Sequence record: PZ793367.1
Reading direction: 5' to 3' (one strand)
Length of the DNA: 62,283 nucleotides
From: a phage
This document shows, piece by piece, positions 1 to 25,400 of the stretch. The notes beneath the pieces were generated by a model, which saw only the letters and a list, made by a program, of their open reading frames with translations, did not search any database and had not been told where the DNA came from. The position numbers were made by a program, and so were the translations under genes. Position 1 is the first letter of the stretch. The number at the start of each line of letters is the position of its first letter.

Positions 1-747
1 ATGACACCAGAAACCCGCGCGGGGTTTATCCTGGAGTACATCGAAGGCGACCTGACCGATCAGTTGCTGGCGGCAAAGTACGGCCTCGATGACTACCAGT
101 TTAAAACCGCTGTACATATCGGAACCGGGAACATCATCAAGCCGGAACCTCTAACCCGTGGATTAAAGCGCGGTATGCGTAACAGTATGGCGGTGACTCA
201 TCTCGCTACCAAAACACTTGACGCTGAAGAGATGGCATTGAGTCCCCTTCAGTCGGCTGAGATTATCGAACCGAAGGCGCGCGACCTGGCGCTATTCCTC
301 AATAACGCGGAGCTATCTTTCGCTAATAACGTGCTCAGGGGAATGAACGCCACCGCAGCAGCCGCCGCCAGCTTTGAGATCTTCAATAAACAACTGGCTG
401 ATAAGAAGGCCGCCGAATTATTGCGGTCATCTCACGTTGCCGACTACCTGGCGAGCATGAAGGGCCGCAGCTTATTCGCACCAGTAAGGAACAAAGCGTA
501 TCTCGAAGCCGTGCTATGGCAGGTCATCGACCGTGGCCTACAACTGAAACAGGAAGTCGACACGCTTACAGGGTTACCAGTAGAAGGCCAATGTAAGTAC
601 GATCCGAAATCTGTCATTGCTGCAAGTGCGTTACTGTCACGCCTCAAAGGCTGGGATAACGTGGAGCAGGGACAAGGTGAAGCCGAAACACAACGCGATC
701 GCTTACGTCGACTGCAAGCAAACTTTAAACAGAATGGGGGTGAGTGA
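1..747 (+). CDS. putative terminase small subunit (DNA-packaging protein)
   Basis: 248-aa ORF directly upstream of and overlapping (TGATG) the large terminase gene; positional call only, no diagnostic motif. Confidence 0.4.
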   Translation: MTPETRAGFILEYIEGDLTDQLLAAKYGLDDYQFKTAVHIGTGNIIKPEPLTRGLKRGMRNSMAVTHLATKTLDAEEMALSPLQSAEIIEPKARDLALFLNNAELSFANNVLRGMNATAAAAASFEIFNKQLADKKAAELLRSSHVADYLASMKGRSLFAPVRNKAYLEAVLWQVIDRGLQLKQEVDTLTGLPVEGQCKYDPKSVIAASALLSRLKGWDNVEQGQGEAETQRDRLRRLQANFKQNGGE

Positions 748-2378
748 TGTCTAAGCGTGATGTGTGGGAGTTTACCAACACAGATGAAGACGTCTGGATG
801 TTGGTCGACTACTTAGAGAAGAAGGCAAATAGCGTTAACTTCACCTTTGAGGATGACTCGGAGATGGACGCGTTTTTCCTCAAGTGTCGCAACGAGTTCC
901 AATTCTTCGCTGAGCGGTGCCTTGTTATTCGTGGCAAGGACAACACGATCGCCCCCATCCGGCTTAACAAAGCTCAGCAATACATGAATGCAATCGCAGC
1001 CTGGCAGATGCACCACACCGGAAAGGTGCGGATTGTGGTCGTTAAAGGTCGCCAGCAGGGGATGAGTACCACGGTCCAGGCCAGAGCATACTGGAAGACG
1101 ATCCATACTGAGGCGTACCATTCGCTCATCATGGCGCATCAGGCTAAGTCATCCTCGGCGCTTTTCGACATGACCAAGCGTTACCATCAGCATTGCCCTC
1201 CAGACTTGCAGCCTGTTAAGGGTCACGATAACGGCATGATGCTTAGCTTTCCTGAGTTAGATAGCAAGTACGCCGTGGCAACCGCTGGTTCTACATCTGC
1301 CGGACGTGGCCTTACTGCTTCCTTCTTCCACGGGTCAGAAGTGGGCTTCTTTGATGATGGTGCTGAGATTGCATCTGGTATCATGCAGGCTATCCCTAAC
1401 GCTGACGGTACCGAGGTCTATTTAGAGTCAACCGCTAACGGTGCATCAGGCTATTTCTATACCCAGTGGATGCTTGCAGCGCCTGCGGTCAATGACAGTC
1501 TGACGGATGCCGACAGTTCCGGTTTTATCCGTGTATTCGTGCCGTGGTTCTGGCAAGACGAGTACCGCAGCGAGGCTCCTGATTCCTTCGTGTACAGCGA
1601 CGAGGAAAGCAAGTATGCCCGACTCTATGGACTGGACCGCGACCAGATGTTCTGGCGTCGTAAGCAAATCAAGTTACTCGATGGCGACTCCCGACGCTTC
1701 GACCGTGACTATCCGGCAACCGCTGAATTAGCTTTCCAGGCTACAGGCGACAACCTGCTAATCACGGGTGACATGGTGGCCTCTGCGTTGTACTGGGCGA
1801 AATCCGGTAAGCTGGATCCTGTCGGTGCCACCGTTATGGGTGTAGACGTTGCCGCTATGGGTGATGACTCGACGGCATTCGTGGTGCGTCGTGGTCGTGT
1901 GGTCCTGCATTGTGAGAAGCTGAGCAAGGCCAGCAACGGCGAGATTGCTAACCGTCTTCATGTACTGCGGGAACTGTACGGCGTCAACCATACGTTCATC
2001 GACGGTACTGGTGGTTACGGTACTGGCGTTCATGATCTCCTTGCTGCCCGTGGTGCTGCACATAATGTTACGCTGGTCCATTTCTCAGAGAAGGCTACCG
2101 AGGACCACAAATACGCTAATAAACGTGCTGAAATGTGGGTCCGTATTCGTGACTGGATGCGTAACGCTGCCTCACTTCCCCAGGGTCATGACTGGGGCCG
2201 CGACCTCTGCGCGCCAACCTACCGCTTTGATGGTGACCGCCTGCGTCTTGAGAAGAAGGACGAAATCAAGAAACGCATTGGTCGCTCACCGGATATTGGG
2301 GACGCGCTGGCACTTACTTTCGCCTTCCCGGTCATCGAGGGCGGCTACAACGACAGCTATGAACCGGACGTTGCTTAA
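747..2378 (+). CDS. terL: terminase large subunit
   Basis: Walker-A-like VKGRQQGMST and ESTANG segment, ATPase then nuclease-like C-terminal half; ATG at 747 preferred over GTG at 744. Confidence 0.8.
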   Translation: MSKRDVWEFTNTDEDVWMLVDYLEKKANSVNFTFEDDSEMDAFFLKCRNEFQFFAERCLVIRGKDNTIAPIRLNKAQQYMNAIAAWQMHHTGKVRIVVVKGRQQGMSTTVQARAYWKTIHTEAYHSLIMAHQAKSSSALFDMTKRYHQHCPPDLQPVKGHDNGMMLSFPELDSKYAVATAGSTSAGRGLTASFFHGSEVGFFDDGAEIASGIMQAIPNADGTEVYLESTANGASGYFYTQWMLAAPAVNDSLTDADSSGFIRVFVPWFWQDEYRSEAPDSFVYSDEESKYARLYGLDRDQMFWRRKQIKLLDGDSRRFDRDYPATAELAFQATGDNLLITGDMVASALYWAKSGKLDPVGATVMGVDVAAMGDDSTAFVVRRGRVVLHCEKLSKASNGEIANRLHVLRELYGVNHTFIDGTGGYGTGVHDLLAARGAAHNVTLVHFSEKATEDHKYANKRAEMWVRIRDWMRNAASLPQGHDWGRDLCAPTYRFDGDRLRLEKKDEIKKRIGRSPDIGDALALTFAFPVIEGGYNDSYEPDVA

Positions 2379-2440
2379 GATACAATCATCACACGGGGTG
2401 ACATGGAGTTACCCCACTTCGCCCAGGGAGGGCCATAGCA

Positions 2441-3277
2441 ATGACCGCTACCATCAAACTCATCACCGAGCAGACCGCTAACCAACTCGTCGACGCTGTA
2501 AACCGTTCTCAGGCTGACGGCTGGTTCCCGGTCTGCGGCGTCGTGGTCTTCAACGCTCGCTATACTCAGTTAATGGTGCTGGATACTGACGACACGACAC
2601 CGCCAGCCTGCAATTACTTTATCGTAGATGCTGCCGATGACGTGTCGTTCACCCAGCGCGTCAATCAATTACTCGACCTCAATCCCGGCGCTGTTTGCCT
2701 GTCGCCCGTTCAGTATTTCCAGGCTCGCTACATTCAAGCCTACGGCGATGATAGTCACGGTCAAACTACTGGCGGCGCTGTGTTCCGTGCATCGTTCACG
2801 ACGACCAATCTCGTAGCCACGCAGTATGTTACAGCAGACAATACGCCGCAGGTGGTCACCTTCAATGCTCAGGCCATACCTAACGCGGCGCTGGGTACAC
2901 TCGACAACGCCACAGGTATATTCACAGCGGCGCGGCGCATTGTCGGTACTCTGGCTATAAGTTGTCAGGTGCGTCGGACTACTGGCGGCGCTGCGGCGGT
3001 AACGTGGGGATTTCAGGTGGAGACTTCACCGGACGGCATAACATGGACACCGACCGCCGGGAGTGCACGTTACATTAACCTTCGTGGTGCCGGGAATAAC
3101 AACGTTTTGCAGACAACCAACCTCACGGCAGCGGTGGATATTCCAGCAGGTACCCTTGTACGAATTACACAGATGACAGACACGTCATCGGCTAATGTAG
3201 GACTGGTAGCACTTCCAGCCATGTTAGGTGGCGCTACAGCCGCTGGTCTGGTGTTCTCGTTGATTACCACGCTGTGA
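2441..3277 (+). CDS. hypothetical virion protein (possible receptor-binding or adaptor protein)
   Basis: 278-aa ORF with GGAGG-like RBS, Thr/Ala/Gly-rich C-terminal half; precedes a tail-fibre gene. Confidence 0.4.
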   Translation: MTATIKLITEQTANQLVDAVNRSQADGWFPVCGVVVFNARYTQLMVLDTDDTTPPACNYFIVDAADDVSFTQRVNQLLDLNPGAVCLSPVQYFQARYIQAYGDDSHGQTTGGAVFRASFTTTNLVATQYVTADNTPQVVTFNAQAIPNAALGTLDNATGIFTAARRIVGTLAISCQVRRTTGGAAAVTWGFQVETSPDGITWTPTAGSARYINLRGAGNNNVLQTTNLTAAVDIPAGTLVRITQMTDTSSANVGLVALPAMLGGATAAGLVFSLITTL

Positions 3278-3283
3278 TACCAT

Positions 3284-3299
3284 AGGGGCTTCGGCCCCT
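3284..3299 (+). terminator. GC stem-loop GGGGC-UUCG-GCCCC (terminator or RNA stability element)
   Basis: Perfect 5-6 bp GC stem with UUCG tetraloop 7 nt after stop codon at 3277; weak U-tract. Confidence 0.45.
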
Positions 3300-3318
3300 T
3301 ATTCACGGAGTACATGAC

Positions 3319-4767
3319 ATGGAACTAACAGTCGCTGGCGGCTACTTCATTCCCGGCAAGACGCCGCAAATTATCAATAAGGTTAATGAGTTAATCGCTC
3401 TCGGCTACGTTCCCTACGGTACCCCGACGTATAACGAGGCCAGCGGTTGGGTAAGTCAGCTAATGGTGCTGGGCTACGGCGGCAGCGCTACTGACTACAC
3501 TCTCACGACGGGTTATCTCGATAAGACTCCCTACTTCCCTAAGAAGCCGCCAGTTAACGGTAATTGGGTGTTGCTCGGCTCACTACTGGCGCGCTCCAAT
3601 AATTTCTACGTGCACGCATGGCTTGACGGCGTAGCCGCTGGCCCACTCATCAATATCGACACGGGTACCACTGGCACGCTACCAGTCAGCCGGGGCGGTA
3701 CAGGGGCAACCACGGAACTGGACGCACGCAACAATCTGGAGTTAGGCGCAGAGGATGACGTGACGTTTAACAGCGTTACCAGTCGCAAGCGCAATACCGG
3801 AACGTCAGCGTTCATTGCTCAGGGCATTGATGGCTACACTCCAGCATCCAGCTTTACAACGCAGATGTACGACACCGCAGGTACCACGTTGCTCGGTCAG
3901 GGCGAGTTCCGCGCCAACAATAACGGTACGCTGCAAATCATCAACCGCGATCCTGTAGGTTCAACGTCATACTTCTGGACCTTCGGACGCGACGGGACTA
4001 CTGAGTTTCCGGGACAAACAATTATTCCCGCAACTCCGGGTAAACCTTGCATCCTCAGGTCGGGCGCTCCGGTTCTCCAGTTTGAGGAAACCGATACTGG
4101 CAAGGTTTACACGATGGTTGCCGATGGTAGCGGTCTGCGTATCAATGCTAACAACACAAGCGGTCCGATCGTATGGGGTTATAGCGGAACAACATCTCGT
4201 CTACAATTACCTGGTATCGAGGGTAACATTCAGATGTATAGCGGCACCACAACCAGCCTCGGTGTAATCACTACTGGCGGCGGTACCACAGCGGTGGGTA
4301 CTCGCAACCAGTTTGAGGTGACCACTTCGGCGGGGTTCTATCTGGTGCGACGTAACACTCAGAACACCACCGGACAATATATTATCAACTTCCCTACGAG
4401 TGCAGGAACCCTGGCCCTCGCAGGTACGTCAGGTATCAATTTCAAACATGACATTATTGACGCCGATTTACTGGAAGCTGTGAACCGCATCGACGCGCTA
4501 CGCATGGTCAACTTTGTCTACAACGACGACGAGCAAAACCGCCAGCGCTTCGGGATTATCGCGGAAGAGGCGGAAACTATAGCTCCGCAGTACATTAAAC
4601 ATCGTGAAGAAATGTATGAATGCGACATTGACGAGAACGGATCATCCATCAACCAGAAGTTCCGCGACCGTCCGTTTGTTGACGTTAACCCCATCGTCAT
4701 GGATTTACTGGGCTACGTTAAGCACTTGTCGGCACGCGTGGCTGAACTGGAAGAGAAATTAAAGTGA
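3319..4767 (+). CDS. tail fibre/tailspike protein with C-terminal intramolecular chaperone (peptidase S74-like) domain
   Basis: Fibre motif LPVSRGGTGATTELDARNNLELG near N-terminus; C-terminal DALRMVNFVYNDDEQNRQRFGIIAEEAETIAPQYI resembles the auto-cleaving chaperone domain. Confidence 0.7.
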   Translation: MELTVAGGYFIPGKTPQIINKVNELIALGYVPYGTPTYNEASGWVSQLMVLGYGGSATDYTLTTGYLDKTPYFPKKPPVNGNWVLLGSLLARSNNFYVHAWLDGVAAGPLINIDTGTTGTLPVSRGGTGATTELDARNNLELGAEDDVTFNSVTSRKRNTGTSAFIAQGIDGYTPASSFTTQMYDTAGTTLLGQGEFRANNNGTLQIINRDPVGSTSYFWTFGRDGTTEFPGQTIIPATPGKPCILRSGAPVLQFEETDTGKVYTMVADGSGLRINANNTSGPIVWGYSGTTSRLQLPGIEGNIQMYSGTTTSLGVITTGGGTTAVGTRNQFEVTTSAGFYLVRRNTQNTTGQYIINFPTSAGTLALAGTSGINFKHDIIDADLLEAVNRIDALRMVNFVYNDDEQNRQRFGIIAEEAETIAPQYIKHREEMYECDIDENGSSINQKFRDRPFVDVNPIVMDLLGYVKHLSARVAELEEKLK

Positions 4768-4799
4768 TGTTATCATGCACTGATTAACGGAGGTGTACT

Positions 4800-4988
4800 A
4801 TGGCAGGACGTCAAGTTTCATACACTACCCGCAGCTTCACTGAAATCGTGAATCGCCTGGACCCGAAGCGACTATCTACCCCGGAAGCGGTATACGTGTT
4901 CGATAACGGAAAGGTGAAGAGCGAGCAGCCGACGCTACCGGGTCACGACTATCGTTGGCTTAAGGACATTGATAATGACAACAGTTAA
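4800..4988 (+). CDS. hypothetical protein
   Basis: 62-aa ORF with GGAGG RBS upstream of ATG. Confidence 0.4.
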   Translation: MAGRQVSYTTRSFTEIVNRLDPKRLSTPEAVYVFDNGKVKSEQPTLPGHDYRWLKDIDNDNS

Positions 4989-5343
4989 CCATGCAGTAAT
5001 TTACACGCGCGGTACAGGTAGCGACGCCATCGAGATTGCAAACTACGAACTGGCCTCCATCATCGGCGAGTGTCTGCACAACGCATACCCCGGCTACCTG
5101 TGGCGTGTAAACGCTGAGATTGAAGGCGGTATCGTTAACATCCTGTGTGGCGACGTGTCCTACGAGTCCGGCGCTACGTTGATGATTGCCGATCTGGAAG
5201 AACCTGTCGCGGCCAAAGCGCTGGTGCTCCGCGCTGGCGGTGAAATCCTGGAACGCGCCAGGCTGCATCGTGGACGTATGCGCGAGCATGAACTGGTGGA
5301 AGCTAAGCGCGACATTCGTGGTAACATCATTGGTTTAAACTGA
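4975..5343 (+). CDS. hypothetical protein
   Basis: ORF in late operon; ATG at 4975 with AAGGA RBS preferred over TTG at 4969. Confidence 0.5.
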   Translation: MTTVNHAVIYTRGTGSDAIEIANYELASIIGECLHNAYPGYLWRVNAEIEGGIVNILCGDVSYESGATLMIADLEEPVAAKALVLRAGGEILERARLHRGRMREHELVEAKRDIRGNIIGLN

Positions 5344-5353
5344 GGATTAAGAG

Positions 5354-7735
5354 ATGCCGAACGCACAAAAGGGGATTAGTGAGTCCCTCGTTGGTCGCGC
5401 GCCGGACACCCAGTCGCCTTACGGCGGCGGTGGTGCTCGCGGGATTACGCAGGTAAACGACGATCCGTACCGCGCTAACCAGATTATTCCGGGCGCTGAA
5501 CTGGACATCAACCAGGCATCCTTCGGTGAGATGGACTCATTCTCCCAGTTCGAGAAGGAAGGCGACACGCTGCAAGCCGAGGAACAGACCTACGACCAAC
5601 CGGACGACTCCGGCGTTGCTGGTATGTCTGAAACTGAGTGGGTAGACCTCGGTCGCCGTTGCTATGACACGGGCCGCACCTTCTACCGTCAGGGCTACCA
5701 GACGCAGCACATCAACGACACCTATCTGTTTAAAGGTCGCCACGAACCGGGCAGCAAGTATTACAGCGAAGCGTTCCGCAACCGCTCGAAAGTTTTCCGC
5801 CCGTTAACCCGCATGGCCTCCCGTAGCTGGGAAGCGGACATTGCAACCGCTCTGTTCCTGAACGATGACTACATGCACATCTCGCCACGCAACGTAACCG
5901 ATCAGGATGCGGATAAAGCGGCGGCAGTGCTGAAGGAAATCGTAAACCTTCGTCTGGATAAAATCTGGTACCCGATTTGTATCGGTGCGGCGCAGGACTC
6001 ATTCATCAATGGGCCAGCAATCGCTAAGGTTTTCTGGTGGCGTGAAACTACCGTTACCAAAACCGACATTCCGGTGCTGGATGAAATGGGTAACCTGGTC
6101 GGTCTGGAAACTACCGAGAACGAAATCGTCGTTCACGATGAGCCGTACATCGACCTGATCCTGCCGGAAAACTTTATCTTTGACCCGACCGCAAAAGCGA
6201 ACGATGTCATCGGTACTGGCAAGTATTTCATCCACAGAAAAATGATGTCTGTTGATGACGTCATGGTACGGATGGAACGCGGCGAGTGGAACATGCTGTC
6301 ACCGGGCGAAATCCTGACGTGTCGCTGGGCGATGGAAGACGACGCCACGCAGCAGGCAAAACGCGGTGAAGGTAAGCCGGACCCAATCAACAACGACAAC
6401 GCTGACACCCGTTACGAATCCGTGATGGTTAACGAAGTGTTCGTCCGCCGTGACGGTATCTGGTACACCTACCACATGATGGGTACCCAGTTCTTACTGG
6501 AAATGCCTGTGGAACTGAAGAACCGCTATCACCACGGTCGCCTGCCGTTCGTTTACGGTACCTGCATGATTGAGTCTCACAATAACGTGCCGGACTCAAA
6601 AGCCCACCTGGGTAGCGAGTTGCAGAAGGCAGTGAACGAAATCAGTAACCAGCGCGTGGACAACGTCAAGCTCGTACTGAACAAGCGTTATCTGGCGCGT
6701 CGCGGTGCATCTATCGACCTGGCCGCTCTGACACGCTCCACTCCGGGCGGCGTAATTTTCACCAGCGACCCGGCTGGCGACCTGATCCCGCAGGAAGTGA
6801 ACGACGTCACCAGTAGCAGCTATGAGGAAACTCAGCGCCTGACTATGGAGATGAACGAAGCGCAGGGTACCTTCAGCGGCCAGGCTGTAGCCAACAACCG
6901 CGAGATGAACGAAACCGTCGGTGGCATGAAGTTGCTGAGCAACGCCGCTACCAAAGTGAACGACTTCGACATCCGTACCTTCGTGTTCACCTTCGTGCGC
7001 CCGGTGCTGGAACTGTTCATGCTCACCGTTCAGTATTATGAGAACGACGAGACGATCATGCACATCGCCGTCGACAACTCGGCCTACTTCCCGCGCCTCA
7101 ACGTGGAAGACCTGACCGACGATCTCATGACTAAACAGCTTGAGATGAAAGTCGATACAGGTATTGGTGCAACTGATCCGGTACAGCGCGTAAACACCTT
7201 GATGTACGGTGTGACGACGGTAATGCAGTTACCCGGCATGGCTGACAACATGGATAGTAAAGCCGTCGGCAGCGCTATCTTCTCAACGCTCGGTCAGGGC
7301 GACGGTAGTAAATTCTTCCCGAATCTGGCGAAGAACTTCCAAGAGCCGCCTCCGTCTGAACCACCAGTTGATCCGCTGGTACAGGCTGCACAGGAAGAAG
7401 CGAAAGGTCGAGTGCAGGAAGCGCAGATTAAAGCTGAACTGGAACTCCAGAAGCAAGCCAACCAACTGGCCGCCGACCGCGAACTGAAGTTGATTCAGAT
7501 GGCGCTTGACGCAGAACTGGAAGGTAAGCGCGGTCAGCTTGATATGTTGCTGTCTATGCTGGATAATGAAACCCGGCTACGGATTGCCGAAGCACAGGAC
7601 AAGACCAAGCGTCAGACCACCGCACTCCAGCACGGAAGCTCATTGCAGCAGACGGCGATGCAGCAGGCCCAGCAAATCGGCCAGCAGGTAACGCCTACTC
7701 AGCAGGAAGTTATCAATGAGTCAAACGTCAAGTAA
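5354..7735 (+). CDS. portal protein
   Basis: 793-aa ORF at the position expected for a portal, between terminase and scaffold/capsid genes; C-terminal Gln/Ala-rich coiled segment. Confidence 0.7.
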   Translation: MPNAQKGISESLVGRAPDTQSPYGGGGARGITQVNDDPYRANQIIPGAELDINQASFGEMDSFSQFEKEGDTLQAEEQTYDQPDDSGVAGMSETEWVDLGRRCYDTGRTFYRQGYQTQHINDTYLFKGRHEPGSKYYSEAFRNRSKVFRPLTRMASRSWEADIATALFLNDDYMHISPRNVTDQDADKAAAVLKEIVNLRLDKIWYPICIGAAQDSFINGPAIAKVFWWRETTVTKTDIPVLDEMGNLVGLETTENEIVVHDEPYIDLILPENFIFDPTAKANDVIGTGKYFIHRKMMSVDDVMVRMERGEWNMLSPGEILTCRWAMEDDATQQAKRGEGKPDPINNDNADTRYESVMVNEVFVRRDGIWYTYHMMGTQFLLEMPVELKNRYHHGRLPFVYGTCMIESHNNVPDSKAHLGSELQKAVNEISNQRVDNVKLVLNKRYLARRGASIDLAALTRSTPGGVIFTSDPAGDLIPQEVNDVTSSSYEETQRLTMEMNEAQGTFSGQAVANNREMNETVGGMKLLSNAATKVNDFDIRTFVFTFVRPVLELFMLTVQYYENDETIMHIAVDNSAYFPRLNVEDLTDDLMTKQLEMKVDTGIGATDPVQRVNTLMYGVTTVMQLPGMADNMDSKAVGSAIFSTLGQGDGSKFFPNLAKNFQEPPPSEPPVDPLVQAAQEEAKGRVQEAQIKAELELQKQANQLAADRELKLIQMALDAELEGKRGQLDMLLSMLDNETRLRIAEAQDKTKRQTTALQHGSSLQQTAMQQAQQIGQQVTPTQQEVINESNVK

Positions 7736-9413: not shown

Positions 9414-10385
9414 ATGGCAGGTCAATTGTGGGGCGTTGAGCGTCTCGGCGGGTTCATGTACTCAGACCAACTGAGTCAGTATCTGCGCAAAGAAGTACAG
9501 CCGATGATGCGTTTCCGCCAGTTCTGCTCGGCGAAAGAAGCATTTACCTACGGTCGTGGTGACATCTTCCACTGGGATATTTTCACCAACGTTCGTACCC
9601 AGGGCGGTCGTCTGAAAGAAGGTCAGGCTCTGCCAGAAACCAACTTCGAAATCCGCCAGGGTTCCTTGCAGATCGACGAGTTCGGTAACTCTGTACCGTA
9701 CACCAAAAAACTGGACAACTTGTCCAAAGTTCCGGTTGAGAACATTATCCAGTCCGCTCTGAAAGACGACTGTGCTAAAACCCTCGACTACGAAGCGTAC
9801 AACCAGTTCAACCAGACTCGTCTGGTAGCTTCCCCGGTTAGCGGCACCTCCGCTACTCAGGTGAACATCGAAGCCGTGGCCGCCGCTGGTGACCATACTG
9901 CGACTGTGAACGACGCTGCACTGTCTCTGGACCACGTTAAAGCTATCATCGACGAGATGAAAGAGCGTAACATTCCGGGCTACGACGGTGATGACTACTT
10001 CGCTCTGGCGCGTCCGACGACTTTCCGTCCGATTCGTAACGAGATTGAAGAACTGTCTAAGTACGTTGAAAGCGGCTGGCGTAACATTCGCCTGGGCGAA
10101 ATCGGCAAATACGAAGGTTGCCGCTTTGTTGAGCAGACCAACATTCCGTCCAAAGGTTGGACCAATGGTAAGTCTGACGAAGCGTTCTTCTTCGGTGGCG
10201 ATACCGTAACTGAAGCAGTTACCGATCCTGAACAGATTCGTGGTAAACTGCCTACCGACTACGGTCGTTCCAAAGGTGTTGCGTGGTACTACATGGGTGG
10301 TTTCGGTATCGTTCACAACCAGTCTCAGGCTGACGATCCGCAGGCACTTCAGAACCGCATCATCCGTTGGGACTCAGCGTCCTAA
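9414..10385 (+). CDS. major capsid protein
   Basis: 323-aa ORF with strong AAAGGAGAG RBS, followed by a stable hairpin; position and size fit an HK97-fold capsid protein. Confidence 0.7.
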   Translation: MAGQLWGVERLGGFMYSDQLSQYLRKEVQPMMRFRQFCSAKEAFTYGRGDIFHWDIFTNVRTQGGRLKEGQALPETNFEIRQGSLQIDEFGNSVPYTKKLDNLSKVPVENIIQSALKDDCAKTLDYEAYNQFNQTRLVASPVSGTSATQVNIEAVAAAGDHTATVNDAALSLDHVKAIIDEMKERNIPGYDGDDYFALARPTTFRPIRNEIEELSKYVESGWRNIRLGEIGKYEGCRFVEQTNIPSKGWTNGKSDEAFFFGGDTVTEAVTDPEQIRGKLPTDYGRSKGVAWYYMGGFGIVHNQSQADDPQALQNRIIRWDSAS

Positions 10386-12383: not shown

Positions 12384-13787
12384 ATGGCTAATTACGATCG
12401 CTTTGCACTGCAAGGTGGCCTCGACACGGCCACTCCTTATCTCAGCCGTCAACCTGGCACGTTGACAGCCACCACAAACTTCTCACCGGAGACTGACGGC
12501 GGCTATGCGCTGGAAGCAGGATACGAGCGCTTCGACGGTCAGCCAGCGCCGAGCGAGACTGTGGTGTACAGCCTCAACATGACGGATGACGTTACGGGCC
12601 TGCTTCCGGGCGACACAATCACTGGTTCAGTGTCCGGTGCTGTGGCGACGGTCGGTGCGATTTTCGGTAAGGAAATCTGGTGCGATGTCACCAACGGCAT
12701 CAACTTCATGCAGGGTGAGACTGTCAGCGGCAACACCATCGAGTATATCTCGACGGAAGCTATCGACCAGCGCAGCTATAACCCGAACGCCACGCGCACC
12801 ACCATTCTCAAGATGTTACCGCTGGCAGCTAATACGCTGGAAGTTGGCGACGCGTTGCTGGGCTTGTCTTCCGCTGCCACGGTTGCCGTCAACATTATCA
12901 AAGTCACCAACGCTGACATGTGGGTGTACGTATCCACGCTGGCTGGCGCGGTGCAGGTTGGCGAGACGATGGTGAAAGGTGACGGTACCGAGTACAAGGT
13001 TGACGGCGAGTATGAAGTGGAACCGATGCTGGCCTCCCCGGATACTCCCGCAGGTGTCTTCTTCTACCTGAGCGAATTGCGTCGCGCTAAGATTGGCGTG
13101 GTGCCTGGTATCAACAGTGTGCGTGGTGTATGGGATCTGGAAGGTGTCGTTTACTCGTTCCGTGACGCTGACGCCAACAGCACTAAAATGTACCGCAGTA
13201 CCACAACAGGCTGGCAGGAAGTCGACCTGGGCTTTACGATGGGATGGGATACGCGCCCGTCTACCACCACTGACGACGAACTCGGTCCGGGCGATGCAAT
13301 CCGTGGTGTGACGTCCGGCGCTACAGCGACTGTAGGCTGGGTAGGTTACATCGCTCAGGATCACTCGTCCGGCTACCTGACGTTCACCAATGTTACCGGA
13401 ACGTTCCAGGCTGGCGAAGTGATTCACAACGATACATATAACGTTGACATCGGTGAAGTGACAGCGGCGGCCACGCCTAACGTTCTCCCGGCTAACGGTC
13501 TGTACCGCTTCACCAACCACAACTTCTTCGGTGGTCTGAATACGTTCGCAATGTACGGCGTGAACGGTGTGAGCAACGGCTTCGTTTACAACGAGACGCA
13601 TGGCTTCTCCTTTATCCCGACGCAAGCCGACACGGATACCCCGTTCGACGTGGTGGAATACAAGGACCATCTGTTCTTCGCGTTCCCGAAAGGTAGCCTG
13701 CAACACAGCGTGCTGGGTAGCCCGATGGACTGGAGCGGTGGCCTCGGCGCACTGGCGGTCGGCGTAGGTTCCGAAATCTTTCGCTGA
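12384..13787 (+). CDS. virion structural protein with three internal GDxxxGxxSGAxATVG repeats (tail tube/nozzle-like, tentative)
   Basis: 467-aa ORF; repeats GDTITGSVSGAVATVG, GDALLGLSSAATVAV, GDAIRGVTSGATATVG. Confidence 0.35.
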   Translation: MANYDRFALQGGLDTATPYLSRQPGTLTATTNFSPETDGGYALEAGYERFDGQPAPSETVVYSLNMTDDVTGLLPGDTITGSVSGAVATVGAIFGKEIWCDVTNGINFMQGETVSGNTIEYISTEAIDQRSYNPNATRTTILKMLPLAANTLEVGDALLGLSSAATVAVNIIKVTNADMWVYVSTLAGAVQVGETMVKGDGTEYKVDGEYEVEPMLASPDTPAGVFFYLSELRRAKIGVVPGINSVRGVWDLEGVVYSFRDADANSTKMYRSTTTGWQEVDLGFTMGWDTRPSTTTDDELGPGDAIRGVTSGATATVGWVGYIAQDHSSGYLTFTNVTGTFQAGEVIHNDTYNVDIGEVTAAATPNVLPANGLYRFTNHNFFGGLNTFAMYGVNGVSNGFVYNETHGFSFIPTQADTDTPFDVVEYKDHLFFAFPKGSLQHSVLGSPMDWSGGLGALAVGVGSEIFR

Positions 13788-13912: not shown

Positions 13913-14653
13913 GTGTACCAGTCTCAATCACTCGTACTCGCCCAGGCAGGCATCATTAGTATCGACCGGACTGACCAATTTGGTAACTTTAGCGACGGTA
14001 CTATCAGCGACGTCATCAGAGACACCATCGTACCTAACTATTCTCGCTGCACTTGCGCAATGGCAAGGAAGAGTCGAGGGCAGTACCGACTCCACTTTGA
14101 GGGAGACGTCAACATCGCCCTTTCCACTAATCAGGGGAATGTGATCGGCTTCTCGATGTTTGACTACGGCGGTCTGACGGTGCGTGCTGCGGTCAACCCG
14201 TACGGTCGTATCTTCTTCATCTCGGATACCGGATACGTCTATCAGGATTCCGTGGGGGCCAGTAACGATGGTGGTGAACGGTCATCAGTATTCCGTACAT
14301 CCTTCGCCAACCAGGGTGACCCGGATACCCGTAAGCGGTACCGCCGTATGGACATGAGTATCCGCGCGCAATCTTACCTTAACGCGCGTGTCGTTTTCTC
14401 GTACAATAAAGGCGCATCCACTCCGCAGGCATCGGTCGAATCTGGCCTGTTAGTGTCCGGCGGCGGTCGCTGGGATTTGTCGCTGTGGGGGCAGGTCTAC
14501 TGGGATGCCACGGAAAACCCGACAATCTCATCTGATATTGACGGCTTAGGTTTCGACATCAGCACGATGCTGTACATCCGGTCACGAATCCATCCGCAGT
14601 TTACCGCAGAGGATTTATCATTCGAATGGTCACCACGTAGAAAGGTACGATAA
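13913..14653 (+). CDS. virion structural protein, start codon uncertain
   Basis: 246-aa ORF beginning at GTG with no RBS; frame is open from 13721; see finding on candidate -1 frameshift. Confidence 0.5.
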   Translation: MYQSQSLVLAQAGIISIDRTDQFGNFSDGTISDVIRDTIVPNYSRCTCAMARKSRGQYRLHFEGDVNIALSTNQGNVIGFSMFDYGGLTVRAAVNPYGRIFFISDTGYVYQDSVGASNDGGERSSVFRTSFANQGDPDTRKRYRRMDMSIRAQSYLNARVVFSYNKGASTPQASVESGLLVSGGGRWDLSLWGQVYWDATENPTISSDIDGLGFDISTMLYIRSRIHPQFTAEDLSFEWSPRRKVR

Positions 14654-16278
14654 TGGCTAACACTTATTTCAACTACATGGACCCGGTGGAACCGGGCGAC
14701 CGTCTGGAGTCAACAAAATACAACGGCGACTTCTCCGCGATTGCCCGTGCTTTCGACATCCTGCCGTCTCCAGATGCGCTGGCCTCCAACACCGGAAACT
14801 ATGCCCGGTCACAAGGTACATCTACGGCGTACACTGTAACCCTGCCGCGCTTCGATGGTAGCTTCGGTTACATCACTGGTATGCAGGTGTTGCTCAACAT
14901 TCACGTTAACAACACCGGGGCGGCCACGCTCAACATTAACGGACTCGGCCCTAAGCCACTCGTCAACCTGACTACCGCGCTCGGCCCACTGGTGGCTAAC
15001 GATCTGCGTGCAGGCACCATCTATTCCATCCGTTATGACGGTACCCGTTTCCAGGTAGTCAACACTGTTTCCGGTGCGGTAAACGCATCGCAGACCGCAG
15101 CTACCCAGGCAACTACCGCCGCCACAAACGCTGGTACATCCGCCACAAACGCAGCCAATAGTGCCAGCGCCGCAGCGACAAGCGCGAGTAATGCAGCCAG
15201 CAGCGCCAGCGCCGCAGCTTCCGGTGTTACTGCCGCCGCAAACTCTGCCAGCGCCGCATCGACGTCTGCAACCAATGCAGCAAACTCTGCGTCTGCGGCA
15301 AACACATCTGCGGGTAACGCTGCCAGCAGCGCCACGGCAGCATCCGGCAGCGCCACGGCAGCGGCAAACTCCGCTACGGCAGCGGCAGGTAGCGCCAGCA
15401 CGGCTAACACCCGCGCCACGGCAGCGGCAGCAAGTGCTACAGCAGCGGCAAACTCTGCGACTCAGGCAGCGGCCAGTGCTCAGACTGCGCTCGACGCTAT
15501 CGGTGACGCATCGTTCAAAGCGGCGGTGATGGGTGTCCTGTTAACCAGCACGCTGGACGTGGGGACCGTCAAGTTCTATGCGCTGAATATTGATCCGAAC
15601 ACCAAATATCCCGGTACCACCTGGGTACGCCTCCCGGTATCGCAAAGCATCCGTACATCCCTGGCCGACGCAAGTGACGTCATGACCACTGTAGGTGCCG
15701 ACTCGGTAACGCTGGCTGTAGCCAACATCCCGTCGCACAACCACACCGCTACCGTCACCATCAATAACACGGACTTGGGTACTAAGGCGTCAACCAGCTT
15801 TGACTACGGTACTAAAACGTCGAGCGCTCACAACTATGGCACGATCACGATGTCCAGTACGGACCTCGGTACCAAAACTACCAACAGCTATGATTACGGC
15901 GCTGTCACCTCGTCGTCCGCTGGTGCACATACTCACACAGTACCGGTGTACACCGCCCTCGGTACAGCCAACACAATAAAGTCAGCATCCACAGGTAGTT
16001 CAAGTTCAGGTAACGCCGCAACGTCGTCCGCTGGTGCGCATACTCACACGTTCGACCTTCCGTCGCATAACCACACGGTTGCAATCGGTAGTCACAGTCA
16101 CACGATGAACCTGGGTACTCACTCCCACACCGTAGCGGTAGGTAGCCATAGTCACAGCGTGGTCGTAGGGAGTCACACCCACACAACCACAATGACGCTG
16201 GGTAATACCGGTACTGGTCAGGCTTTCAGCATCGTGGCAAAATCTACTATCCTTGTCGGCTGGAGACGTACCGCATGA
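14653..16278 (+). CDS. tail fibre protein 1
   Basis: Ala/Ser-rich collagen-like repeats (NSASAAATSASNAASSASAAAS...), C-terminal His-x-His repeats (SHNHTVAIGSHSHTMNLGTHSHTVAVGSHSHS). Confidence 0.8.
   Translation: MANTYFNYMDPVEPGDRLESTKYNGDFSAIARAFDILPSPDALASNTGNYARSQGTSTAYTVTLPRFDGSFGYITGMQVLLNIHVNNTGAATLNINGLGPKPLVNLTTALGPLVANDLRAGTIYSIRYDGTRFQVVNTVSGAVNASQTAATQATTAATNAGTSATNAANSASAAATSASNAASSASAAASGVTAAANSASAASTSATNAANSASAANTSAGNAASSATAASGSATAAANSATAAAGSASTANTRATAAAASATAAANSATQAAASAQTALDAIGDASFKAAVMGVLLTSTLDVGTVKFYALNIDPNTKYPGTTWVRLPVSQSIRTSLADASDVMTTVGADSVTLAVANIPSHNHTATVTINNTDLGTKASTSFDYGTKTSSAHNYGTITMSSTDLGTKTTNSYDYGAVTSSSAGAHTHTVPVYTALGTANTIKSASTGSSSSGNAATSSAGAHTHTFDLPSHNHTVAIGSHSHTMNLGTHSHTVAVGSHSHSVVVGSHTHTTTMTLGNTGTGQAFSIVAKSTILVGWRRTA
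15100..15470 (+). repeat. in-frame Ala/Ser-rich coding tandem repeats within tail fibre 1
   Basis: Periodic GCx-rich units encoding AANSASAA-type repeats. Confidence 0.6.
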
Positions 16279-17891
16279 GTAACCAATATTACAACTTTAT
16301 CAATCCGGCTGAAGCGGGTACGATTGTCGACCCGTTCGACTACAACCGTGAGATGGAAAAGATCACCGAGGCTTTCTCGGTGGTCCCGCCTGCTTCCCAG
16401 TTAACTTCCGGTACCCTGAACTACTCAACGGATACGGGTACCGGGAACGATCACATCGCCACGCTGGATGACTTTGATACCGACTATGTTGCTGGGAGTA
16501 ACGTTGCACTCCGAATCAATGACGCTTCTACTGGACCGTCTACCCTGAGTGTAAACGGGCTGGCCGCTAAAGACGTCACGCTGTCAGTGTTCGGCGCGGT
16601 GGCGGCAGGTGACCTGTTTGCTGAAGGCGTCTACACGTTCGTATTCAACGGTGAGCGTTTCCAGATTCTGGAGATGGGCGCACGCTATTACACGACAGCC
16701 TTCGAACAGCTTTCGATCGCTCAGGCTAAAGCAGCACTCGCGGCGGCCAGTGAAGCTACGGCACTGAGTGAGCGTAACGCAGCAGCAGCGTCGGCGGCAA
16801 ACGCCCTCGCGTCAGCAAACGCTATTACCGCGTCCAAAAATGCAGCGGCGGGTAGCGCCACGTCAGCGGCGGGTAGCGCCACGTCAGCAGCAAACTCAGC
16901 AACGTCAGCGGCGGGTAGCGCTACGTCAGCAGCAAACTCAGCAACGGCAGCGGCAGGTAGCGCTACGGCAGCGGCGAACTCTGCGACGGCAGCGGCGAAC
17001 TCTGCTACGGCTTCCGACGCCAGCGCAACGGCGGCGGCAAACTCCGCAACGGCGGCGGCAGGTAGCGCGGCGGACGCAGCAACTTACGCGCAGGAAGCTA
17101 TCGACATCGTTAACGCGCCGAACTTTCTCGACCGCGTGCAGGCGGCTGTTCTCGAACTGGAATTGTTCGTCGGTTCCACCGAGTTCTTTGACGCTAACAT
17201 TGATCCGAACGTTAAATATCCGGGTACCACATGGGTGCGTCTACCAGCGTCCACGACTATCCGTATGTCCAACGCAACGGGCACCGACGTGCTGGCCGCA
17301 ACAGGTAGCGACAATGTAGCTTTGACTGTCAGCACCCTACCATCACATAGTCACGCTGTCACAGCGGGTACAGTCAGTTCTACAGACCTCGGTACCGACA
17401 CGCTGGCATCTGTCGACCTCGGTACCGACACGCTGGCTAATTTTACCGACACGGCCAAAACGTCATCCAGTACGGACCTCGGTACCAAAACTACCAGCAG
17501 TTATGATCCTGGTGCAATAGCAACCAACTCCACGGGTGCACACACTCACACAGTCACTCCGTATGCTGCGGAAGGAAGCAACGCGCTTATTAAATCTTCA
17601 GATTTAGGTGCCGTGAAAGCGGGCGACTACACAACATCCTCATCAGGTGCACACACGCACAGCGTCAACCTGGGTGCACACACGCACACTGTAGCGATAG
17701 GTAGTCACAACCACACGTACGCGCTGGGGTCACATACTCATACCGTGGCGCTGGGGTCACATACTCACAACGTTGCTCTCGGTAGTCACAACCACAGCAC
17801 GTCAACATCCGTGACGTCGGTTGGTTCCGGTACGGCGTTCTCCGTGGTAGAATCGTCTCTAATCTTAGTCGCATGGTACAGGAGCGCATAA
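16275..17891 (+). CDS. tail fibre protein 2 (paralogue of fibre 1)
   Basis: Shares N-terminus (YFNYMDP vs YYNFINP), Ala/Ser repeats, HxH repeats and C-terminal LILVxWYR motif with the upstream fibre. Confidence 0.8.
   Translation: MSNQYYNFINPAEAGTIVDPFDYNREMEKITEAFSVVPPASQLTSGTLNYSTDTGTGNDHIATLDDFDTDYVAGSNVALRINDASTGPSTLSVNGLAAKDVTLSVFGAVAAGDLFAEGVYTFVFNGERFQILEMGARYYTTAFEQLSIAQAKAALAAASEATALSERNAAAASAANALASANAITASKNAAAGSATSAAGSATSAANSATSAAGSATSAANSATAAAGSATAAANSATAAANSATASDASATAAANSATAAAGSAADAATYAQEAIDIVNAPNFLDRVQAAVLELELFVGSTEFFDANIDPNVKYPGTTWVRLPASTTIRMSNATGTDVLAATGSDNVALTVSTLPSHSHAVTAGTVSSTDLGTDTLASVDLGTDTLANFTDTAKTSSSTDLGTKTTSSYDPGAIATNSTGAHTHTVTPYAAEGSNALIKSSDLGAVKAGDYTTSSSGAHTHSVNLGAHTHTVAIGSHNHTYALGSHTHTVALGSHTHNVALGSHNHSTSTSVTSVGSGTAFSVVESSLILVAWYRSA
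16770..17060 (+). repeat. in-frame 21/42-bp coding tandem repeats within tail fibre 2
   Basis: gcggcgggtagcgccacgtcagc units repeated, encoding AAGSATSAANSATSAAGSATAAANSAT. Confidence 0.65.
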
Positions 17892-22393: not shown

Positions 22394-22434
22394 ATGTGCT
22401 ATGCTTCCCCTATCAACAAGGGGGAGCATTTCTA

Positions 22435-25400
22435 ATGGCTAGTAACATCGACCTTTCTGGACTGGACTTATCCCAGCCAAATCAACAACCTGCAACGAAG
22501 AAGTCTGAAAAGACTGCACCTGCTATTGACCTGTCGACGGTTAACTTTGACCTGAGCGACGTAGACTTTTCCGGTATTGGAAATGAGAAGGCTGTCACAG
22601 AACCAGCAAAAGAAGATAGCTGGGGCGACGTAATTTACAAATCTCTCGCCGCGATGCCTGAGCGTATGCAACGTTCATGGCAGGGTATCAAACAAGGCGT
22701 GGCCGTTAAAGGTCAAGACCTGACTGACGGGGTGCTGGCTGAACGCCTGCGTAACGATCCGTCATATGCTGCCGAACTGGGGATTGACCCGGCTACCTTT
22801 ACCGCTGCCGAAGGCGACACGTATGCGACCAAACTGCAAAAGAATAAAGCTCTCTACGCCGCTATTGATAAAGCGAAGGCCGCAGAACTGAATAAGGATG
22901 CCGACTTTGTTGCCGCGCGTGATGAAGGTCTTCGCCTGTCAAACGAGATTGCCAAAACTGCACCGAAGACTGGTGACGAGTGGTCAGCTAAAAACCTGGT
23001 ATCCACAATCCTCACTGGCGCGCAGGACATGTCTCCGGCAATCCTGACGTCCATCCTGTTGAAGCGTCCGGTCGCTGGCCTCGCTGAGATGACTGGTCAG
23101 GCGTACGGTTCCTACTATCAGGACTCAATCGACAAAGGTCTGTCTCCGGCAGAAGCCGATAACCGCGCTACCATGTTCGCCGCACTGGAACCAATCACTG
23201 AAGCGGTACCGCTGGGCCTCATCATGAAGAAGGGTGCGACTAGCCTGACTGACCTCGGTAAGTCTGCAATGGCTGAAGGTATCCAGGAGTCCGCTACCCA
23301 GGCTATCCAGAACGGTTACGACATTGGTGTGCTTGACGAAGATATGACGGTAGGCCAGTTCCTGAATGACGTGGCGTTCTCCGGTGTAACTGGTGCTGGC
23401 GTAGGTGGCGTGCTGCATGGCGCGGTGCAAGCTCCCGGCATGGTCAAAGACTGGAAGGATAACCGCTCTGTTAACAACGCTATCGGTGACGCTGCGGCTG
23501 AGTCCGGTCAGGCGGTAGAAGGCGTGGACCCGAACGAGTACGACGCTGTGCGTGCTGAGATGGGCGGCGGTGACGTGCTGGACCAGATGGTTGAACAGGC
23601 ATCTCCTGCAATCACTGAAGCTCGCAAGTCTGCCTACATGGAAGCGCGCGCCCAGGGTATGTCTCCGGCTGAAGCGATGGCCGCATCCCGTGAAGTCGGT
23701 GAAGTCGACGCTATGGATCAGATGGTCAGCGAACTGTTCGACTCCCCGGACTCCATCTACTATGCGAACAAGGCAAGCGCCACTAACGCACCGCAGTCTG
23801 TAGCACAGATGGTACAGCAGCAGGTAGCGCAGGGTGACATTGGTCCGCTTCCGGGCGAGACTAAAGGTCTGCCGTCTCCGGGGCAAACTTCCACCATCGC
23901 TATGCCCGGTCCAGTTGCGCAGGTTAAAGAGGCCACTGGCTACAATCCACGCGGTGCGGCTGAAGAGTCTCCGGTACTGGCAGCAGTCCAGCAGAAACTG
24001 GAAGCGCCAGCACTGCCGCCGCAGGTTACTGAAGCTGTGGTACCGCCAGCACTGCCGCCTAAAGCTGAAGTGACTCCGCCTGCGTTACCGCAGATTGACG
24101 TAGCCGCTGCACTGGAACCTACCGTTCCTGCCGCTGAGCCAGCCGCTGCCGAGGTTAAACCGAAGCCAGCACTGTTTGCCCGTACCAAAAAGAAAGCCGC
24201 GCCAGAAGTCGATACAGAAGCACTGGCCGCCGAAGAAGCACGTCAGGCAGAACTGAAGGCGAAAGGTGACGAGGCTGTAGCCAAATACGTTGAGCGTGAA
24301 TCCGTGCGTCCGGCGTTACCGGGTAAGAAGCCGCCAGCTATTCAGGTCACCAACAAGATCCTGAAGGAAGCCAACGAGCGTGGCGTTGACGTCGGCAATA
24401 AAGTGAACTGGAACGGCAAGGAGTATTCCGTCGATAAATTCCAGGGCCGTGCTGTACGTCTGGTTGATGAGAACGGCAACGGTCACATTGTTGATGCCCG
24501 TGAAATCAACGTGCCATCTGTGGTACCGGAAGGTATGAAGCGTGTATCCCAGGAAACCAAAGACGCCCGTGAGCGTTACGACCTGGCCCCTGTAGAGTTC
24601 GAAGATGAGCGCAACCTGGGTGAGATGGTTACCGATGCACAGCAGGCGACCGACGATGTACTGGCGCAGTCTGCCGAAGTTCAGCGTGACCTGGGTGAGA
24701 TGATCGCTGAGAAGGAGAAGGACAACGCCGCAATTGAAGGTGAGTCCACTCGCGTTACCGACGTTGAAGGTCGTGTTGGTTTTGAACCAGTGGAAGGTAC
24801 CGACCTGGACGGGAAGTATGCGAAAGACTCCCACGGTGAAGTCCGCAAGATTACTGGCGTGCAAGGTCGTCGCTTCGTGCTGGACAATGGCGACATCATG
24901 ATTCGTCGCATTGGTGACACCAACGTGATGGATGCTCCACCTAAAGGCGCACGTAAAGCGATGTCGATGGAGGAACGTATTGTAGCTAACACGCTGCAAG
25001 GTATGCTGCATTCACTGAACGATACCAAGCGTCCGCTAAACAAACTGCGCGAAAACATGTCTCACGCTAGTAATCAGGTTGATGAACAGTACCGTCATCT
25101 GTACGCGCCACTGAAGGGTAAGACTCGCGCGGCCATGCGTAAGGAACTGGAAGACCGCATGTCCAGTATCGCTGAGCAGTCACCTAAAGGTCTGAGCAAA
25201 GAAAGTCAGGCGACGGCTGACCGTCTGCGTGAGAAGTCTGCCGCACGCGTCGAGTCTTTCGAGAAGTCACTGGAAGATTTCACGCGTGGTATGAAACCGC
25301 TGGTACGTCGCAACTACATTCGCGCCCTGGAGAAGATCCAACCGGATGGTATTACCCTGAAGGAAACCATCGACCGTGCGTATGCCCGTGGCGATAAAAT

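Follow-up and report, generated by a model that had tools for sequence, protein, structure and literature searches.

The only relative of the anchor domain considered here whose place in the virion is known from experiment is gp84 of phage phi24B, in which a DUF1737 domain forms a hexamer on the pore of the face-centre hexon of a T=9 capsid, as seen by cryo-electron microscopy (preprint, bioRxiv 10.64898/2026.04.10.717836). The protein is proteolytically processed and the DUF1737 domain alone stays on the capsid (bioRxiv 10.64898/2026.04.10.717836). In the E. coli podophage PTXU04, two adjacent genes are both labelled "tail fiber protein" in RefSeq. For the related phage Bas95, which depends strictly on the O16 O-antigen, the BASEL authors modelled Gp6, the homologue of the second of these products, as a tail fibre (PMC11990801). 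The sequence analysed here, sequence record PZ793367.1 (62,283 nucleotides, the window), represents all or nearly all of a Xuquatrovirus genome. Over the first 8 kb, identity is 95.7% to PTXU04, 90.7% to Pondi across the 86% of the query that aligns, and 80.8% to HelliStehle/Bas95 over 70%. Between the terminase and portal genes it encodes equivalents of the two labelled PTXU04 genes, gp03 and gp04. We read their products as modular head fibres, and give this reading in full, docking on the capsid included, a probability of about 50%.

The first-pass annotation had placed two open reading frames (ORFs) between terminase and portal, had taken their products for fibre-type receptor-binding proteins and had called the position unusual for fibre genes. 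These points stand, and both ORFs are genuine genes with many homologues. A fibre cassette at this position is not new in itself: the databases already list these genes as tail fibre proteins, and a model of one homologue exists. The genes and the parts of their products are laid out as follows.

744 to 2378, plus strand: TerL, the terminase large subunit (PHROG 2, E = 9e-25), 5' border of the variable locus
2441 to 3277, plus strand: slot A gene, an ORF equivalent to PTXU04 gp03, encoding 278 residues with an anchor and a knob
2441 to 2749, plus strand: type I anchor of gp03, tandem DUF1737-like, residues 1-103, two beta-alpha-beta-beta units (AlphaFold2 predicted local distance difference test score, pLDDT, 89.6 when modelled alone)
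2777 to 3274, plus strand: TNF/C1q-like jelly-roll knob of gp03, residues 113-278, assigned from the predicted fold
3319 to 4767, plus strand: slot B gene, an ORF equivalent to PTXU04 gp04, encoding a fibre of 482 residues
3319 to 3630, plus strand: type II anchor of gp04, tandem DUF1737-like, residues 1-104 (A5 profile, E = 1.6e-26; aligned to type I by hhalign)
3694 to 3747, plus strand: fibre motif GGTGATTELDARNNLELG (GGTGATT) of gp04, residues 126-143, aligning to the same motif in DT57C LtfA (8hqz_d, residues 440-480)
3748 to 4428, plus strand: fibre shaft and receptor-binding tip, the mature C-terminal part of gp04 (residues 321-370 align with DT57C LtfA)
4429 to 4764, plus strand: S74 intramolecular chaperone of gp04, from Ser371 (S-G-I-N-F-K376), located by PF13884 and 8hqz_d
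4800 to 5343, plus strand: gp05 (62 residues) and gp06 (124 residues), small conserved ORFs also found upstream of the portal gene in Vibrio relatives
5354 to 7735, plus strand: portal protein, SU10-type (Pfam SU10_portal, E = 5.6e-34)

The central feature of both products is the N-terminal anchor. BLASTP between gp03 and gp04 gives nothing significant, and their relation is visible only by profiles: the type I and type II anchor profiles align over 83 columns (hhalign 95.7%, E = 1.1e-8). The anchor is internally duplicated (half 1 against half 2, hhalign 93.2%, E = 2.8e-7). Searched against 1.84 billion representative proteins, the anchor profile returns only 321 matches. The strong ones are N-terminal tandem domains on proteins of 135-842 residues, encoded in this same locus in every case where the contig was examined, and the weak ones are single-domain proteins of 47-70 residues that score above the Pfam cut-off for DUF1737. 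Matches of at least 200 residues nearly all have two or more repeats, small matches one. The modules attached to the anchor in a set of 45 proteins include S74 (13 proteins), Phage_tail_C_2 (3), Tail_spike_N (2), collagen, pectate-lyase-like and beta-helix types. Every two- or three-gene genome translated encodes one protein of each anchor class, with the distal modules shuffled between classes; the metagenomic relatives L006 and L007, for instance, carry a knob on a type II anchor in slot A and an S74 fibre on a type I anchor in slot B. The homologue alignment likewise shows the gp03-type knob fused to a gp04-like N-terminus in other phages. A shared anchor with swappable distal modules is very probably the architecture of the locus.

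Some proteins consist of little but this domain. Stand-alone anchors of about 100 residues, bearing no distal module, are Bas95 gp5 (100 residues; 4827-5129 in L002, the Bas95 sequence), P0064 and P0074. At the other extreme, P0042 from the representative library has 3838 residues with 19 matches to the anchor profile and no significant Pfam domain. A word-indexed homologue search was of no use, giving three matches for the gp04 N-terminus and six for the anchor profile.

Homology of the anchor to DUF1737 is supported at the profile level, short of membership by the curated threshold, and by a match of predicted folds. The first repeat (anchor half 1) can be aligned to the N-terminus of phi24B gp84 (hhalign 84.7%, E = 6.7e-6), and gp84 shares PHROGs 2036 and 9498 with Bas95 gp5. 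Among the 45 anchor relatives, three match Pfam DUF1737 (PF08410) at E <= 0.001 (best 4.2e-7), and the Rogunavirus protein JK_26P scores 24.1 bits. DUF1737 models in BFVD superpose on half of the anchor model with template modelling (TM) scores of 0.7-0.8, normalised to the target. No homology of the gp03/gp04 N-terminal domain to a known tail-attachment domain was found. The assumption, made in the first-pass annotation, that these are tail fibres is put in question by the anchor, whose type of domain binds capsids. One candidate was left aside: the "head fiber" label of Bas95 gp4 derives from a weak C-terminal PHROG match (E = 8e-4) and is unused as evidence, and tblastn with gp4 retrieves only itself.

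The genomic setting of the anchor in other phages also points to the head. In an unrelated group, the Rogunaviruses (T1-like siphoviruses), a fold search of BFVD detects proteins that begin with the entire tandem domain (TM 0.73-0.80). JK_26 of Jk06 combines the tandem anchor (A5 profile, E = 2.4e-12) with collagen repeats and a C-terminal domain, and its gene lies directly upstream of the major head gene. The lambda decoration gene D has the matching position, upstream of its major head gene. Among Rogunaviruses the anchor is 93-98% conserved and the distal part is swapped; a literature search on Rogunavirus decoration proteins gave no result. No tail domain of the gp17/gp18 type, named after the two tail fibres of PTXU04, is found in Jk06. 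The Vibrio relatives show the reverse, keeping a gp17-type tail fibre domain and lacking both the anchor proteins and the locus. It is thus improbable that the partner shared by all these anchors is a tail protein of the gp17/gp18 type. Docking on the N-terminal domains of gp17/gp18 is accordingly rejected as a general mechanism, though it may apply within the Xuquatrovirus clade. The HK97-fold hexon is the obvious candidate for a shared partner. Against TIGR04387, the model of the N4-gp56 capsid family with a cut-off of 60 bits, the capsid protein of the window reaches 44 bits (E = 1.7e-11), which falls short, and that of phi24B 79 bits; BLASTP between the two is not significant. At 79 x 76 nm, the head of PTXU04 exceeds those of T7-like phages, listed alongside it at 56-60 nm, and this suggests a capsid larger than T=7.

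The analysis shows the structure of the genes, the homologies of their domains, the predicted folds, the synteny and the breakpoints of the mosaic. Capsid docking is the most likely mechanism built on these elements, and in it the site of docking, the formation of trimers and the part played in adsorption are inferred. One to three slots directly after TerL would each encode a trimeric adhesin, made of a virion anchor of about 100 residues at the N-terminus and an exchangeable distal module. The distal modules found on the tandem anchor are trimeric folds, and a set of three chains, at two domains per chain, would supply the six domains seen on the phi24B hexon. The three chains would thus form a six-domain ring able to dock on the central pore of a capsid hexon in the manner of the phi24B gp84 DUF1737 hexamer. 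Head fibres of this kind would make the first, reversible contact with surface glycans, leaving it to the separate gp17/gp18 tail fibres, which bear T4 gp37-like needle tips, to trigger infection by a contact of their own. Recombination at conserved junctions and at the boundary between anchor and shaft would reshuffle the specificities. Taken one step further, and here the odds seem to us slightly short of even, the proteins may represent a new class of head fibres, in which the tandem DUF1737 lets a trimer fit the six-fold hexon pore as a pseudo-hexameric plug. Their genes would occupy a hypervariable locus within the head block, placed downstream of TerL in Xuquatrovirus-type podophages and beside the capsid gene in Rogunaviruses. 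On a capsid larger than T=7, each of the two anchor classes could serve a hexon environment of its own. Comparing anchor type with the identity of capsid or adaptor for co-variation is uninformative, the capsid protein being 83-99% conserved in those enteric relatives that could be compared.

Several points weigh against this. The window proteins miss the Pfam DUF1737 (PF08410) threshold, with 15.0 bits (E = 0.024) for gp03 and 13.7 for gp04 against a cut-off of 24, and a small alpha/beta domain could be re-used for a different partner. The hexon evidence from phi24B comes from a preprint. The distal modules are homologous to genuine tail fibres, lateral ones included, and to tailspikes. The O16 dependence of Bas95 is easier to explain with a tail-borne receptor binder. 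Finally, the two anchor classes per genome parallel the paralogous gp17 and gp18, and the anchors could branch from those.

The last three of these points also speak for the published alternative, namely that the tandem domain docks gp03 and gp04 trimers on the short podovirus tail as side fibres. Their partner would be the adaptor/nozzle region or the gp17/gp18 N-terminal domains, giving branched fibres as in G7C, CBA120 and DT57C, and their role would be to bind O-antigen or capsule as primary receptors. The RefSeq labels and the modelling of Bas95 Gp6 also speak for this arrangement. In Bas95, moreover, the gp17/gp18 homologues (gp20 and gp21) are reduced by internal deletion to stubs of 219 and 215 residues that lack the tip. 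These stubs could be adaptors for the two anchor classes; equally, the loss could make a capsid-borne adhesin indispensable for adsorption. Docking on the tail nevertheless appears rather doubtful to us, though it is a possibility to be taken seriously. It leaves aside the hexon position of the one experimentally placed relative and the head-gene neighbourhood in siphoviruses that have no gp17/gp18-type domain, and anchor-only proteins make little sense as tail fibres. Furthermore, gp03 and gp04 lie in the head/packaging block, and the tail block has fibres of its own. PDB sequence searches with the adaptor and with the nozzle-like protein gave no match.

Knock-down and virion data from PTXU04 bear on all of these explanations. 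In a CRISPRi-ART screen on rough BL21, gp03, gp04 and gp05 were scored "Semi-fit" with non-significant p values, and gp16 and gp17 "Fit" (PMC11879866, supplement). The data fit the head-fibre reading, and so mild a phenotype is less expected of tail fibres. Whether the genes may be called accessory, as they had been, is uncertain, given on one side these calls on a rough host and on the other the strict O16 dependence of Bas95 with its modelled fibre. Peptide mass fingerprinting of PTXU04 assigned only gp7, gp10, gp11 and gp12 (Korf et al.), a further point against a place on the capsid. The absence of gp03 and gp04 from these four proteins, the "Semi-fit" calls and the processing of phi24B gp84, of which DUF1737 alone remains on the capsid, would also suit products that are not part of the virion at all: glycan-binding proteins secreted or released at lysis, by analogy with the released catalytic part of the NanS-p esterase, with some other role for the anchor. 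This is highly improbable. Only a few gel bands were covered by the fingerprinting; S74 chaperone fibres, like TNF-like knobs, typically serve as structural adhesins, and strong diversifying mosaicism is typical of receptor-binding proteins of virions.

The slot A protein, gp03, is 84% identical in amino acid sequence to its PTXU04 counterpart and has 30 homologues. It had been described as Thr/Gly-rich; its composition (T 14.0%, A 13.7%, G 7.9%) makes it Thr/Ala-rich instead. The AlphaFold2 model of the whole protein has a pLDDT of 78. By analogy with related folds, the knob presumably forms a homotrimer; a PDB sequence search with the gp03 family profile finds nothing. A role of gp03 as chaperone or assembly factor for gp04 was considered and rejected, as gp03 is itself equipped with an anchor and a knob of receptor type and the two modules recombine independently. 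With a knob of receptor-binding type in gp03, the phage has four candidate receptor-binding proteins, one more than the first-pass annotation had counted.

The slot B protein, gp04, is 99.4% identical to PTXU04 gp04 and matches PHROG 1980, tail fiber (E = 2.4e-42). The fibre motif and the C-terminal S74 chaperone attributed to it are both present, the latter as Peptidase_S74 (PF13884) on residues 373-425 with 34.1 bits against a cut-off of 22. The last 160 residues match the L-shaped tail fibre LtfA of DT57C (PDB 8hqz, chain 8hqz_d; E = 1.6e-48). At the predicted cleavage site, Ser371 and Lys376 form the expected pair, with the lysine five residues past the serine nucleophile, as this class of chaperone requires. 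Endosialidase and T5 pb1 chaperones follow the same spacing rule. Within the phage collection, only the two PTXU04 records match gp04 in its centre (about residues 145-225), and the nearest other match, in Salmonella phage SCF, starts at residue 226 with 37% identity.

Among the enteric phages, the locus itself is old. It occurs at the same position in every enteric relative examined, namely PTXU04, Pondi, Bas95 and seven metagenomic sequences (L006, L007, L008, L012, L014, L016 and L022), in the order TerS, TerL, one to three variable genes, an ORF of about 60 residues, an ORF of about 122 residues and portal, as far as the contigs reach. The nearest outgroup consists of marine Vibrio relatives, with a portal about 34% identical. 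In two of them, Vibrio phages D279 and 1.232.O, TerL is followed by two small ORFs and then portal, with no variable locus, and no anchor domain turns up when the entire D279 genome is scanned in six frames. To judge from this distribution, the locus would be either a gain specific to the clade or a loss in the Vibrio branch, and not a recent insertion. In composition the two genes do not stand out: gp03 and gp04 have guanine-cytosine (GC) contents of 0.554 and 0.529, and the values at third codon positions (GC3) are 0.573 and 0.592, against 0.584 +/- 0.058 for the genome. Synonymous codon-choice scores of both genes also lie within one standard deviation of the genome, so that no skew is seen.

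The content of the locus, in contrast to its position, is exchanged. Nucleotide identity to PTXU04 is 79.9% in gp03, 94-99% in the flanks and 99.0% in gp04, with the switch at the hairpin between the two genes. With Pondi, homology is lost at 3644, just 3' of the gp04 anchor, and picks up again at 4735; between these points the distal part of gp04 has been replaced. The interval 2369-4767 has no nucleotide-level match in Bas95. As judged from these alignments, horizontal exchange with sharp breakpoints, by allelic replacement within an old locus, accounts for the pattern. The horizontally acquired module proposed earlier is therefore no more than partly right: parts are exchanged and the Vibrio outgroup lacks the locus, but enteric synteny and normal composition contradict a recent acquisition. 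It follows that a foreign two-gene cassette, inserted in this phage or a very recent ancestor as an accessory host-range island, is very improbable. Such an island would agree with the absence of the locus from the Vibrio relatives, with a junction that accepts insertions and with the occurrence of the distal domains in unrelated phages. The same-position locus of one to three genes in the enteric relatives largely refutes it, and the normal GC, GC3 and codon choice, the 99% identity of gp04 to PTXU04 and the allelic nature of the variation all go the other way.

Each slot is flanked by short sequences that are kept among relatives, as follows.

2395 to 2415, plus strand: 8-bp hairpin in the spacer between TerL and gp03, with no UUCG loop (RNA fold -13.9 kcal/mol, z = -2.2)
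2422 to 2432, plus strand: CCCAGGGAGGG, a conserved ribosome-binding region 3' of the preceding hairpin and upstream of slot A
3284 to 3299, plus strand: UUCG-tetraloop hairpin AGGGGC-UUCG-GCCCCU between slot A and slot B (-11.7 kcal/mol, z = -1.9), the only UUCG hairpin
3' of the UUCG hairpin and before slot B, plus strand: TTATTCAYGGAG, the ribosome-binding site of gp04
4768 to 4799, plus strand: 3' junction TGnTAT(C/G)ATGC...CTGATTAACGGAGG upstream of gp05, 3' border of the variable locus

The first hairpin together with CCCAGGGAGGG is kept in PTXU04, Pondi and L008, and CCCAGGGAGGG also in L006 and L007. The UUCG hairpin had been said to bound the cassette, and it lies between the genes instead. 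It is identical in PTXU04 and Pondi and is kept in Bas95 despite unrelated flanking coding sequence. The 3' junction motif is kept in Bas95, L006, L007 and L008. Nucleotide homology to Bas95 ends at 2368, and with both Bas95 and L008 it resumes at 4767-4768. It is plausible, given this conservation, that the slot-flanking sequences (CCCAGGGAGGG; the UUCG hairpin with TTATTCAYGGAG; the CTGATTAACGGAGG junction) serve as recombination sites. No hairpin was found 3' of 4767, an Rfam scan of 2300-4900 gave no match, and a scan for promoters and terminators showed no enrichment relative to shuffled sequence and placed no site at the cassette borders. The 3' junction, which marks the 3' recombination border, looks like an extended -10 element with a ribosome-binding site behind it. 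In Bas95 (L002, 2372-3910, minus strand) a gene for a 512-residue HNH homing endonuclease is inserted between TerL and slot A, and the TerL/slot A junction therefore tolerates insertions. In one metagenomic relative, L008 (9317-9757), a 146-residue hydrophobic, membrane-protein-like ORF lies between slot A and slot B.

Elsewhere in the window, the two paralogous tail fibres equivalent to PTXU04 gp17 and gp18 are encoded at 14653-16278 and 16275-17891. Each has an N-terminal domain in common with VPHD279_0014 of Vibrio phage D279, an Ala-rich coiled coil and a needle tip of the His-x-His type seen in T4 gp37 (2xgf, E = 4e-11). The major capsid protein (9414-10385) is unusually conserved in the enteric relatives, with 83-99% amino acid identity where comparable; TerL ranges over 58-99%, and the adaptor is about 59% identical in Bas95 and L014 and 96% in PTXU04. 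The homologue of gp16, a nozzle-like or head-closure-like protein of 756 residues in PTXU04 that was scored "Fit" in the knock-down screen, is split by a single-base deletion near 13779 into ORFs 12384-13787 and 13913-14653, and the split may reflect a true frameshift, a pseudogene or an error in sequencing. An ORF of 2210 residues (22396-29028) corresponds in position and length to PTXU04 gp25, an essential "polyvalent" protein with an LPD38 domain (CRISPRi-ART paper, PMC11879866). Outside this group of phages, a lambda-like prophage in GCA_022493775.1 (L020, 7001-8323) carries a tandem anchor fused to DUF6645. This gene sits between the lysis genes and terminase, the region that holds NanS-p in Stx phages.

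The kinds of element involved, modular receptor-binding proteins and DUF1737 capsid decoration, are known. A literature search found no earlier description of the shared tandem DUF1737-like anchor or of its two classes with one of each per genome. The same search found none of the TNF-like knob of gp03, of slot-wise mosaicism with defined junctions, of the link to a capsid-binding domain or of the parallel family beside the capsid gene of T1-like phages. Should the anchor dock on hexons, "tail fibre" would be a wrong annotation in Xuquatrovirus records and for the Rogunavirus counterparts. Much of the host-range variation would then reside on the capsid instead of the tail, and host-range engineering and prediction for these phages would have to take adhesins on the capsid into account. 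The ring of tandem DUF1737 domains would offer a new structural way of seating a trimer on a six-fold site, as well as a compact, portable anchor of about 100 residues for capsid display. Read conservatively, the locus still illustrates clearly how receptor binders are exchanged slot by slot at defined junctions, and because of this exchange receptor use can differ among relatives whose capsid proteins are about 95% identical.

Compared with phi24B gp84, a NanS-p type esterase, gp03 and gp04 have the same small N-terminal domain of a helix plus three strands and a distal part directed at glycans. In contrast to the single DUF1737 per chain and the hexamer of phi24B, there are two domains per chain here, on proteins expected to be trimeric, and the distal part is a fibre or knob rather than an esterase. 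The gp84 gene lies after stx and before the lysis genes, those of the window after TerL, and capsid binding, demonstrated for phi24B in the preprint, is here a proposal. The Rogunavirus JK_26P and the BECP10 "collagen-like protein" have the same tandem anchor (TM 0.74-0.80). The architecture of JK_26P is like that of gp03, with anchor, trimeric spacer and a C-terminal domain, presumably of beta type, and with the anchor kept and the distal part swapped. It differs in belonging to siphoviruses, in the gene position upstream of the major head gene and in the collagen spacer. The gene is mis-annotated as DNA polymerase or tail fibre.

The distal parts have their likenesses among tail proteins. 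gp04 shares with T5 pb1 and DT57C LtfA (PDB 8hqz) the GGTGATT motif, a homologous C-terminal region of about 160 residues and the Ser/Lys cleavage pair, and the lateral fibres of Dhillonvirus have the same C-terminal module at 57-62% identity. Unlike gp04, LtfA has an entirely different N-terminal attachment domain and 1076 residues against 482, and the central part of gp04 (about residues 145-225) has no counterpart in the phage collection, PTXU04 aside. The gp03 knob is only 10-17% identical to the TNF/C1q-like tips of BclA, C1q, the tail fibre of cyanophages A4 and A-1(L), and PRD1 P5. T7 gp17, the K1F, K1-5 and SP6 tailspikes and G7C gp63.1/gp66 also combine a conserved anchor with exchangeable distal modules and breakpoints between anchor and shaft, and more than one receptor binder is encoded per virion. 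They differ from the present system in the anchor fold, and the locus described here lies in the packaging/head block. In proposed function the nearest parallels are phi29 gp8.5, T4 Hoc and T5 pb10, non-essential capsid-borne adhesins that aid adsorption, to which there is no relationship of sequence or fold. Hoc and pb10 occupy hexon centres as monomers, gp8.5 quasi-3-fold sites as trimers; we know of no pseudo-hexameric ring in any of the three, and it is by such a ring that gp03 and gp04 would occupy the hexon.

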